A stretch of DNA of 64,000 bases. Origin: Escherichia coli (lineage in GTDB: Bacteria; Pseudomonadota; Gammaproteobacteria; Enterobacterales; Enterobacteriaceae). The translations under genes and the position numbers were made by a program. This document shows positions 7,981 through 29,859 of the stretch, piece after piece (the stretch's first letter is position 1; each line of letters begins with the position of its first letter). Under the pieces are notes generated by a model. The model saw nothing but the letters and a program-made list of their open reading frames with translations. It did no database searches and had not been told where the DNA came from. The stretch lies in the NCBI RefSeq assembly GCF_003334335.1, contig NZ_QOWQ01000010.1. One strand, given 5' to 3'.

Positions 7981-8092
7981 CCCCGGCTAGACCGGGGTGC
8001 GCGAATACTGCGCCAACACCAGGGAAATCTTGGCTGCGCCGTAAATTATTATGATGAGTTACAAGGGCACAGCACTGTTTTTCAGGCCGCAC
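7972..8092 (-). ncRNA. arcZ: Hfq-dependent small RNA ArcZ (RyhA/SraH)
   Basis: Reverse complement reads GTGCGGCCTGAAAAACAGTGCTGTGCCC...CACCCCGGTCTAGCCGGGGTCATTTTTT, matching the ArcZ sequence as I recall it. Terminator hairpin CCCCGG/CCGGGG at 7981-7997; the U-run overlaps the arcB stop codon. Confidence 0.8.
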
Positions 8093-8863: not shown

Positions 8864-9588
8864 GTAAAAGCCGCTTAACGGTGTTTAGTTTCGTTCGCCG
8901 TTTTCTTTTGCGGTTAATGGTTGTCCTCGCCGTTTTCTGGGGCGGGGGCATCGCGTTGTTTAGCGTTGCGCCTGTTCCCTTCTCAGCGGTAATGGTCGAG
9001 CGACAGGTCAGCGCCTGGCTGCATGGCAATTTTCGTTACGTGGCACATTCTGACTGGGTCAGTATGGATCAAATCTCGCCGTGGATGGGACTGGCGGTGA
9101 TTGCCGCAGAAGATCAGAAATTTCCTGAGCACTGGGGCTTTGATGTCGCTTCCATTGAGAAAGCCCTGGCGCACAACGAGCGCAATGAAAACCGTATTCG
9201 CGGTGCTTCAACGATTTCTCAACAGACAGCCAAAAATCTCTTTTTATGGGATGGGCGTAGCTGGGTTCGAAAAGGGCTGGAAGCCGGATTAACGCTGGGG
9301 ATAGAAACGGTCTGGAGCAAAAAGCGTATCCTGACGGTTTACCTGAATATCGCCGAATTTGGCGACGGTGTGTTTGGCGTCGAAGCTGCGGCACAACGTT
9401 ATTTCCACAAACCCGCGAGCAAACTTACCCGGTCGGAAGCTGCATTACTGGCAGCTGTATTACCTAATCCACTTCGTTTCAAAGTCTCCTCGCCATCGGG
9501 CTACGTGCGTAGCCGTCAGGCGTGGATTTTACGGCAGATGTATCAGTTAGGCGGTGAGCCGTTTATGCAACAACACCAGCTGGATTAA
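8860..9588 (+). CDS. mtgA: Monofunctional peptidoglycan glycosyltransferase
   Basis: 242 aa; transglycosylase motifs ([21 protein letters not shown]); ATGA overlap with the elbB stop. Confidence 0.95.
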
Positions 9589-10217
9589 GCTTCGCGCGAA
9601 GTGAGGGCCAGCGTTTTGCTCTCACGAGGTTGCAGATCTTTCTGCAGGGCAATAGCCAGCGCCGGTTGGGCGATAAATCGTTTCCATAACCGCTCTTGCT
9701 TACGCAGACAACACCACTTCGACCAGGTCGCCAGTGGAATCAATGTGCTTTCACCAATGTTGTCGCAGACGACCGGGATAACCTCTGACTCACTGATGCG
9801 GTGACAGAGGATATTCTGCGGCTTCAGCGACATCGTCACGATACGGTTATCCTGCAAATAACGCTTCAGCTGTTTCAGTAGCTGGCGCAGTTGTGCAATG
9901 TCTTCTTCGTAACGGCATTGTTCAGCAAATTCGGTCAGCGTAATGGAAGGCTTGCTGTCAAAATCTGCAATCACATCGTAGACATAACCGGTTCCGCAAT
10001 CCGTCTCAACGGTACCGTGATAGCGCGGTATTCCACTCCAGTCTTTTAACCGGCGACCAAGATGCGCGTAGTACTTTAACTCACGGCGGATCTCTTTATC
10101 GCCACCATCGCCACGATGGTAGACAATCTTGATACAGCGTTGGGCATCTTCCGGATGCGCATAACATTTCCGATGTCTTCCGGTGCCCAGGGGACTTTGT
10201 TCAGATAAGCGAATCAT
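9585..10217 (-). CDS. yrbL: PhoP-regulon protein YrbL (function unknown)
   Basis: ORF-track 9585..10274; start trimmed to [11 protein letters not shown] (210 aa); a PhoP box lies ~50 bp upstream of this start. Confidence 0.85.
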
Positions 10218-10267
10218 GCCATCTCCTGGAAATATTTTCTGACGATCTCCAGTATGGTCGATTAACT

Positions 10268-10284
10268 TAAACAAAACCTAAACA
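10268..10284 (-). promoter_or_regulatory. PhoP box (direct repeat TGTTTA-N5-TGTTTA) upstream of yrbL
   Basis: Minus-strand sequence TGTTTAGGTTTTGTTTA is an exact fit to the PhoP hexamer direct repeat; yrbL is a known PhoP-activated gene. Confidence 0.6.
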
Positions 10285-10430
10285 ATGCCTCTTAAGGTTT
10301 TCTTAAGGTTCTTCTGAAAGTGAAAAGCGCACAAAATGTACAAATGACGTTGATTGAGAACGATTTCAGTACGTGATTTTCTTATTGTCGGGGGGAGTTT
10401 GAAGGGAGTTGTATGTCAAAGTGATGAAGA

Positions 10431-10703
10431 TTAATCTTCATCAAAACCAGAATTAAAGAGGGCGATAACGGCGGCCAGTGCTTCCTCTTCCTGTGGACCG
10501 GTCGCTTCAACTTCAATCTGCCGTCCTTTGGCAGAATCCAACATCAGCAGCGCAATAACGCTGTTGGCTTCAGCCTCGGTGCCTTCGTCATTACGTAAGA
10601 GCACTTCAGCGTCAAAACCCTGCATTAATTCAAACAGCTTCATTGCAGGCCGGGCATGCATGCCCAGCTTGTTTGTGATTTCAACAGTTTGCTTGACGGT
10701 CAT
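10431..10703 (-). CDS. npr: Phosphocarrier protein NPr (nitrogen PTS)
   Basis: 90 aa, [20 protein letters not shown]; HPr-like. Confidence 0.95.
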
Positions 10704-11554
10704 GGTTTACGTTTTTCCAGCGTACGATGGCGTGACTGGACGTTTTTACCGCGCGAGCGGAAGTAGTCTGCCAGTTGCTCTGCAATATACACCGAACGGT
10801 GCTTCCCGCCGGTACAACCAATGGCGACCGTCAAGTAGCTACGGTTGTTGGTTTCCAGCATAGGTAACCATAGCTCAAGATAGCTTCGCGTCTGGTAGAT
10901 AAAATTGTGTACTTCTGTGTGGCGGTCGAGGAACGCGGCGACAGGTTTATCAAGACCTGTCATTGGACGCAGTTTCGGATCCCAGTGCGGGTTCGGCAAG
11001 AAGCGCACGTCAAAGACGTAATCTGCATCGATAGGGATACCGTGTTTGAAGCCGAAAGACTCAAAGACCATGGTCAGTTCGCGTTCACGTTTACCCAGCA
11101 GACGGGTACGCAGCATTTCAGCCAGCTCGTGAACGGACATTTCTGAGGTATCGACAATCAGATCCGCTCGCGAACGCAGAGGCTCCAGCAAATCGCTTTC
11201 TTTGTCGATAGCACTTTCCAGCGACAGGTTTTTGCTGGAAAGCGGATGCAGTCGGCGCGTGTCACTGTAACGACGAATTAAGGTATTACGGTCGGCATCC
11301 AGGAACAGGAGTTGCGGTGAGAAAGCGTCAGGCAGGTTACTCATCGCCTGTTCGAATATTTCTGGTGACTCCGGCATATTACGAACATCAATGCTGACGG
11401 CGGCAGAAATCTCGCGATCGGACAGGGTTCGAGCCAGATCGGGTAACAACACTACGGGAAGGTTATCCACGCAGTAAAAACCCATATCTTCCAGCGCACG
11501 CAGGGCGACAGATTTACCTGAACCTGAACGTCCGCTGACGATCATCAGTACCAT
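10700..11554 (-). CDS. rapZ: RNase adaptor protein RapZ (YhbJ)
   Basis: 284 aa; Walker A GRSGSGKS; ATGA overlap with npr. Confidence 0.95.
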
Positions 11555-29706: not shown

Positions 29707-29782
29707 AATCTCGCGCTAACAACCTGGAATCGAGCCGTCATACTACGGCGCAACGCCCTATAAAGTAAACGATGACCCTTCG

Positions 29783-29810
29783 GGAACTTCAGGGTAAAAT
29801 GACTATCAAA
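29783..29810 (+). promoter_or_regulatory. Candidate sigmaE-type promoter upstream of greA
   Basis: GGAACTT, 16-bp spacer, TCAAA fits the sigmaE -35/-10 pattern; greA is a reported sigmaE regulon member. Confidence 0.5.
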
Positions 29811-29825
29811 ATGTGAATTGTAGCT

Positions 29826-29859
29826 GACCTGGGACTTGTACCCGGGTCGGTATTTTTTT
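29826..29859 (+). terminator. graL: greA leader attenuator hairpin (3-prime end of the GraL leader RNA)
   Basis: GACCTGGG-ACTTGTA-CCCGGGTC followed by GGTATTTTTTT, about 95 nt upstream of the greA ATG. Confidence 0.6.

Follow-up and report, generated by a model that had tools for sequence, protein, structure and literature searches.

Regulation of Escherichia coli yrbL by PhoP reportedly goes back to Minagawa 2003 and Zwir 2005, and the gene is said to have been a standard PhoP-regulon reporter since 2003–2005. In Salmonella, the yrbL promoter consists of a −35 hexamer TAGGTT, an 18-nt spacer and a −10 hexamer CATACT, with 11 nt between the PhoP box and the −10 (Zwir et al. 2012, PMC3335776). 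A single S1-mapped start was reported, active in the wild type at 10 μM Mg2+ and inactive in a phoP mutant, with a leader of 32 nt and a distance of 2 between the −10 and +1, and the promoter was classed as "architecture I" with those of mgtA and phoP, which are predicted class II promoters (PMC3335776). Footprinting and in vivo occupancy by phosphorylated PhoP (PhoP-P) were both reported for this promoter (PMC3335776, PMC4196223), and yrbL was the earliest transcribed among 20 PhoP targets (PMC4196223). In Shigella flexneri, a sequence identical to the one described below, tTGTTTAggtttTGTTTAa, was predicted as a PhoP site, a fragment from upstream of yrbL was shifted by PhoP-P in EMSAs, and deletion of phoPQ lowered yrbL to 0.02 of wild type on arrays (a drop of ~50-fold) and to 0.07 by qRT-PCR (PMC5775216). 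An E. coli yrbL reporter responds to PhoP induced optogenetically by light, with the lowest PhoP sensitivity of the genes tested (PMC13215669), and deletion of yrbL has no feedback on PhoQ/PhoP signalling (PMC2789325).

Repression of yrbL by PmrA (BasR) is reported for E. coli and Salmonella (PMC3335776, PMC2681069, PMC4196223), and the Salmonella PmrA box was placed "~24 bp" from the PhoP box (PMC2681069). In E. coli B populations adapted to iron(III), in which basR, eptA and arn had risen, yrbL was repeatedly among the most down-regulated genes (PMC13405929). The gene is also a direct Fur-repressed target in MG1655 (PMC4676285) and CFT073 (PMC7157518), in each case on the basis of ChIP-seq and transcriptome data, and in CFT073 it rose 5.66-fold in a fur deletion. 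PhoP is one of at least three published yrbL inputs, the others being repression by BasR/PmrA and by Fur.

The E. coli locus described here was analysed in a stretch of 64,000 nt, referred to at its full length as the window. Sequence elements and their uniqueness, spacing and conservation were computed; PhoP binding, dependence on PhoP and Mg2+, PmrA repression and Fur binding were taken from the literature. With a probability of roughly 95%, the 213-bp spacer upstream of yrbL is a PhoP-activated yrbL promoter subject to PmrA and Fur repression, with transcription starting near 10249 and a product of 210 aa. The PhoP site in this promoter and the 210-aa gene model, both put forward in an initial annotation made from the letters of the DNA, are correct and already known, being published and, for PhoP, part of the gene's name. 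The link between PhoP and yrbL is textbook PhoP-regulon content, and it serves as a positive control in which the site was recognised and the gene start corrected from sequence.

The npr–yrbL spacer and the start of yrbL

The genes of the locus were placed as follows.

Plus strand: elbB and mtgA
Minus strand: yrbL, npr, rapZ and ptsN
9585–10217, minus strand: yrbL coding sequence, 210 aa plus stop (RefSeq CDS of 633 nt), ATG at 10217–10215
10431–10703, minus strand: npr (ptsO), which ends the rpoN operon and lies upstream of yrbL in the same orientation

Positions 10218–10430 are exactly the 213-bp spacer from the npr stop codon to the yrbL start. The stretch 9585–10703, beneath which lie mtgA, yrbL, npr and rapZ, matched all 5426 complete E. 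coli genomes, 5421 of them over at least 80% of its length, at 90–100% identity. Upstream regions were aligned for 12 orthologous yrbL loci from Escherichia species, Citrobacter and Salmonella arizonae, and more distant syntenic loci from Siccibacter, Pluralibacter, Erwinia and Cedecea were compared, giving 16 syntenic loci in total. Across the 12 aligned loci the spacer is poorly conserved overall (mean column identity 66%, many indels), with conserved islands at the ATG and Shine-Dalgarno sequence, the −10 hexamer CATACT, the PhoP box, the repeat CTTAAG-N5-CTTAAG and a block at 10324–10345.

Searches against Rfam at gathering thresholds over the whole window gave zero matches in the npr–yrbL region, and permissive thresholds on 9400–10900 gave no credible match, only one sub-threshold snoRNA. 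Two small spacer ORFs with TTG starts (21 and 26 aa) were considered and rejected as unsupported. Elsewhere in the window, Rfam matches above the gathering threshold comprised ArcZ, SraG, the greA, rimP and S15 leaders, naRNA4 and two tRNAs, as is expected for this region of E. coli; five of these were placed as follows.

7985–8092, minus strand: ArcZ
47271–47442, minus strand: SraG
29737–29858, plus strand: greA leader
40545–40645, plus strand: rimP leader
46927–47041, plus strand: S15 leader

RefSeq names the product "PhoP regulatory network protein YrbL" (210 aa), as does NCBIfam, whose equivalog model NF007671 covers residues 1–210 of 210 and scores 396.7 bits (cut-off 227). This full-length match above the curated cut-off assigns the protein to the YrbL family; Pfam PF10707 covers residues 2–185 (E = 7.5e-66). 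The mechanical ORF list instead gave a start at TTG 10274 and 229 aa, with the TTG inside the PhoP box, which would turn the repeat from a promoter element into coding sequence. In E. coli and its nearest relatives the frame is indeed open between 10274 and 10217, but stops close it in E. albertii, C. amalonaticus and S. arizonae (15, 15 and 4 codons before the ATG, respectively), where there is no alternative start, and single-base indels between genera occur in the upstream region. The ATG at 10217 is invariant in 12/12 orthologous loci and has AGGAG 5 nt upstream, whereas the TTG has no Shine-Dalgarno sequence; the family models begin at the ATG, almost all full-length YrbL homologues are 196–214 aa long, and the transcription start transferred from Salmonella falls downstream of TTG 10274. 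A start at the TTG is therefore extremely improbable. The 210-aa model is right, and the 229-aa ORF is an artefact of mechanical ORF calling: the TTG at which it begins sits within the box, 5′ of the inferred transcription start, and stops interrupt the extension in other genera. The shorter gene model preferred in the initial annotation agrees with the RefSeq CDS, the NF007671 match and the upstream stops in other genera.

The PhoP box and the yrbL promoter

On the yrbL strand, the promoter elements follow one another in the order TGTTTAGGTTTTGTTTA, AGTTAATCGAC (11 nt), CATACT, GG..., the leader, AGGAG, ATGGC and ATG.

10268–10284, minus strand: PhoP box TGTTTA-GGTTT-TGTTTA, the unique consensus match, overlapping a weak −35 TAGGTT
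10280–10275, minus strand: weak −35 hexamer TAGGTT, overlapped by the PhoP box, 18-nt spacer to the −10
10251–10256, minus strand: −10 hexamer CATACT, 11 nt 3′ of the box, 6/6 columns invariant in 12 loci
10249, minus strand: inferred transcription start, transferred from Salmonella S1 mapping, with a 32-nt leader
10223–10227, minus strand: Shine-Dalgarno sequence AGGAG, 5 nt before the ATG, with CCAGGAGATGGCATG kept across Escherichia

The window contains a single copy of the 17-mer TGTTTAGGTTTTGTTTA, free of mismatches, at 10268–10284 on the yrbL (minus) strand, and exact matches to KGTTTA-N5-KGTTTA on both strands of the 64 kb numbered 1 against 0.01 expected from 100 dinucleotide-preserving shuffles. 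With one mismatch allowed, 2 matches were found in the same 64 kb against 0.75 expected, so that only the exact match is informative. A gap of 50 nt separates the 3′ edge of the box from the yrbL ATG (10217), and this distance is 50–51 nt in 12/12 Escherichia, Citrobacter and Salmonella loci. Both the exact box and its position about 50 bp upstream of the start had been claimed from the letters, and the counts bear this out.

The consensus has just 12 specified positions, would be met by ~0.75 matches per window at one mismatch, and begins each hexamer with a position that differs among species, which might suggest a chance match to a short T-rich motif with no regulatory role. Exact matches are expected at only 0.01 per window, however, the position, orientation and spacing to the invariant −10 are fixed across three genera, and published EMSA, footprint, ChIP and expression data refute a chance origin, the probability of which is negligible. 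The reading as a PhoP box is further borne out by geometry: the hexamers, 18-nt spacer and 11-nt gap of the window are identical to those of the S1-mapped Salmonella yrbL promoter, and the Shigella EMSA and the E. coli reporter response point the same way. Expression responsive to Mg2+, predicted in the initial annotation, matches the PhoP- and low-Mg2+-dependent Salmonella start (PMC3335776), and published results on the PhoP dependence that it proposed to check are positive, with yrbL at 0.02 of wild type in the Shigella phoPQ deletion (PMC5775216).

Across Escherichia, Citrobacter and Salmonella, 9/17 columns of the PhoP box are invariant and the GTTTA and TTTA cores are kept; in Siccibacter and Erwinia the box is degenerate, and in Pluralibacter and Cedecea it is hardly recognisable. 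A 73-mer at 10240–10312 takes in the −10, the PhoP box and the CTTAAG repeat. Of 5410 complete E. coli genomes, 3108 carry it unchanged, a further 2298 have 1–3 differences and 4 fall in a 90–95% identity band, so that ~42% differ somewhere. The three variant E. coli genomes aligned, including CFT073, all read TGTTTAG(G/A)TTTCGTTTA, in which the second hexamer starts with C. The "perfect" repeat of the initial annotation thus holds for this window and fails in part of the species, being a feature of a lineage rather than a species constant.

The −10, the Shine-Dalgarno sequence and the ATG are invariant among the 12 aligned loci. A generic sigma-70 scan called no promoter in the npr–yrbL spacer, as expected of an activator-dependent promoter with a poor −35, and this result is not counter-evidence. 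Transfer of the 32-nt Salmonella leader would put the E. coli start near 10249. A start 2 nt past CATACT is unusually close, so a small error may lie in the −10 assignment or in the mapped end.

In the proposed mechanism, low Mg2+, cationic peptides, acid pH or osmotic upshift would be sensed by PhoQ and yield phosphorylated PhoP, a dimer of which would bind the direct repeat TGTTTA-N5-TGTTTA at 10284–10268. Bound PhoP would recruit RNA polymerase by the class II mechanism inferred for yrbL from its "architecture I" (compare mgtA and phoP). The spacer would act as an activator-dependent sigma-70 promoter, giving transcripts that start near 10249 and carry a 32-nt leader with AGGAG ahead of the ATG at 10217, from which the 210-aa YrbL would be translated.

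Alternatively, yrbL could be transcribed mainly by read-through from rpoN-hpf-ptsN-rapZ-npr, with the PhoP box merely modulating its expression. The two genes npr and yrbL lie on the same strand, and an intrinsic-terminator scan of the npr–yrbL spacer found none in E. coli, yet the single Salmonella start is inactive in a phoP mutant (PMC3335776), Shigella yrbL drops ~50-fold when phoPQ is deleted (PMC5775216), and a C-rich, G-poor tract after npr at ~10378–10396 could serve Rho-dependent termination. Main expression by read-through is very unlikely on this evidence, and a PhoP-activated promoter within the spacer is retained as the source of yrbL transcripts. Siccibacter, Pluralibacter and C. 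amalonaticus were observed to carry a clear hairpin followed by a T-run where E. coli has no terminator.

BasR/PmrA, Fur and a conserved block upstream of the PhoP box

Upstream of the PhoP box, three further elements were recorded.

10291–10307, both strands: BasR/PmrA box CTTAAG-GTTTT-CTTAAG (CTTAAGGTTTTCTTAAG), a repressor site according to the literature
10324–10345, minus strand: invariant block A-TTGTACATTT-n-GTGC-n-CTTT, 19/22 columns invariant in 12 loci
10424–10443, both strands: perfect palindrome of 20 bp, GATGAAGATTAATCTTCATC, across the npr stop codon

CTTAAG is palindromic, and the BasR/PmrA box therefore reads on both strands; on the plus strand, 10291–10312 consists of two tandem 11-mers, CTTAAGGTTTT and CTTAAGGTTCT. 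The box is the sole site in the window for YTTAAK-N5-YTTAAK, for which 0.13 are expected by chance, and its centre lies 23 bp from that of the PhoP box. In the 12 loci 14/17 of its columns are invariant, and the CTTAAG repeat is found in 16/16 syntenic loci, including those of Siccibacter, Pluralibacter, Erwinia and Cedecea, with the orientation of the spacer flipped in Erwinia sp. and Cedecea. In these loci the BasR/PmrA box is conserved more widely than the PhoP box and outlasts it in evolution. BasR/PmrA bound at CTTAAG-N5-CTTAAG (10291–10307) would lower yrbL output. In E. coli ST131 strain 4993, an 11-bp deletion at ~10297–10307 was observed that removes exactly one tandem BasR/PmrA unit, a change that should relieve BasR repression of yrbL.

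The block is 20–22 bp long, reads TTGTACATTTnGTGCnCTTT, is found from Escherichia to Salmonella arizonae and is better conserved than the PhoP box; its distance to the ATG is 106–107 nt in 12/12 loci, and it is partly kept in Siccibacter and Pluralibacter. In CFT073, the Fur peak at yrbL has its summit at 3781815 and a modest height of 72.25 (PMC7157518). The CFT073 record places the yrbL start at 3781944 and the block at 3781818–3781837, which puts the summit 129 bp 5′ of the ATG and at a distance of 3 bp from the block; the corresponding window position is ~10346. A Fur-box scan of 10200–10450 with the 19-bp Fur consensus GATAATGATAATCATTATC gave a best score of 11/19, a background value equal to the median of the best scores obtained for random 250-nt segments of the window. 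The block is linked to Fur by position and has no likeness to a Fur box. Comparison with the motifs of OmpR, RstA, CpxR, PhoB, TorR, EvgA, MarA/SoxS, NtrC, sigma-54 and sigma-E yielded no convincing match, matches to the block pattern elsewhere in the window were not in excess, and a literature search with the block as a text string returned only an unrelated human paper.

Fur acting ~130 bp upstream of the ATG would likewise lower yrbL output. Combining activation by PhoP with repression by BasR/PmrA and Fur, yrbL would be expressed most strongly at low Mg2+ combined with low iron. A broader and on balance doubtful proposal is that the block is an undescribed operator, recognised either by Fur in a non-canonical way or by some additional factor, that ~130 bp of the yrbL promoter integrate Mg2+ (through PhoP), Fe3+ (through BasR) and Fe2+ (through Fur), and that YrbL might act on the LPS core or on envelope charge.

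The palindrome GATGAAGATTAATCTTCATC at the npr stop codon is predicted to pair into a stem of 9 bp in the minimum-energy structure, and in three related Escherichia lineages it reads ACGAAGATTAATCTTCGT, with a paired, apparently compensatory change that leaves it symmetrical. Its arms match Fur-box arms at 7/9 and 7/9 positions if the centre is taken as 2 nt instead of 1. This palindrome aside, the npr 3′ region gave an RNA fold whose stability did not significantly exceed that of shuffles (z = −1.35).

YrbL and comparison with known systems

Among 25 aligned sequences, K30 is nearly invariant and E46, N135 and D152 are invariant; these correspond to the ATP-binding Lys, the alpha-C Glu, the catalytic-loop Asn and the DFG Asp of kinases, all of which are present. 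Ser130 (TMSLKPQN; codon 9828–9830, minus strand) aligns with the Asp of HLDLKPQN in STK17B, and the HRD catalytic Asp is replaced by S, T, N or A in all YrbL orthologues aligned; position 130 is Asp only in a divergent paralogue on one metagenome contig (L019). YrbL is a minimal kinase-fold protein without the canonical catalytic aspartate. It had been described in the initial annotation as a protein with no known activity, and papers up to 2026 indeed report neither activity nor substrate.

An LPS core kinase is encoded by rfaY. In TAT-RasGAP resistance selections, described in two papers, mutations in envZ were accompanied by mutations in basS, rfaY and yrbL, with yrbL mutated in both studies (V149L, later E42G). 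E42 and V149 are nearly invariant in the YrbL alignment. On four metagenome contigs (L018, L019, L023 and L024), YrbL homologues of ~50% identity lie downstream of dnaE inside an LPS-core cluster that comprises a Kdo/WaaP-family kinase, GT4, GT2, GT9, Wzy_C and a second YrbL paralogue retaining the Asp. One dnaE-linked lineage shows the LPS-cluster context of homologues strongly; in another it is loose, and two lack it. Since it is not general, the link to the envelope is a lead, not a conclusion. The LPS-cluster context and the mutations selected by antimicrobial peptides are circumstantial hints that YrbL might act on the LPS core or on envelope charge. A 420-bp contig, NZ_JUET01000135.1, labelled Tannerella forsythia ATCC 43037, encodes YrbL residues 1–129 at 98% identity to E. 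coli and is almost certainly E. coli contamination of that assembly.

YrbL is among the earliest-induced ancestral PhoP targets, is governed by three metal-sensing regulators and has been mutated repeatedly under antimicrobial-peptide selection. Testable leads on its activity come from the conserved block upstream and from the LPS clusters around distant homologues.

Compared with the minimal protein-kinase-like proteins RIO1/2, Bud32, NleH1 and OspG, and with the LPS kinases WaaY and Kdo/WaaP of the same Pfam clan, YrbL differs in the replacement of the HRD Asp, which is Ser, Thr, Asn or Ala in 23/23 aligned near-full-length relatives that are 45–81% identical (12 residues, against IVHLDLKPQNIL).

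The yrbL promoter of Salmonella enterica is built like that of E. coli, with one PhoP box in direct orientation, 11 nt, CATACT, TAGGTT and an 18-nt spacer, and likewise with a PmrA box ~24 bp from the PhoP box and 50–51 nt to the ATG. The two differ in the first PhoP hexamer, CGTTTA in Salmonella and TGTTTA in the E. coli window, and the second hexamer of S. arizonae reads ATTTA. As at yrbL, the mgtA and phoP promoters of E. coli and Salmonella have one (T/G)GTTTA-N5-(T/G)GTTTA box over a poor −35, about one helical turn 5′ of the −10. The spacing from box to −10 is 12 nt at mgtA and phoP and 11 nt at yrbL, the regulatory leader of mgtA is 264 nt long compared with 32 nt for yrbL, and mgtA and phoP, unlike yrbL, have no adjacent PmrA box. 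In this last respect yrbL resembles pmrD (the "bi-fan"), which is also activated by PhoP and has a nearby repressing PmrA box that provides negative feedback from the Fe3+/PmrA branch. The distance between the PhoP and PmrA boxes is ~38 bp at pmrD and ~23–24 bp at yrbL, and yrbL differs from pmrD further in being a direct target of Fur.
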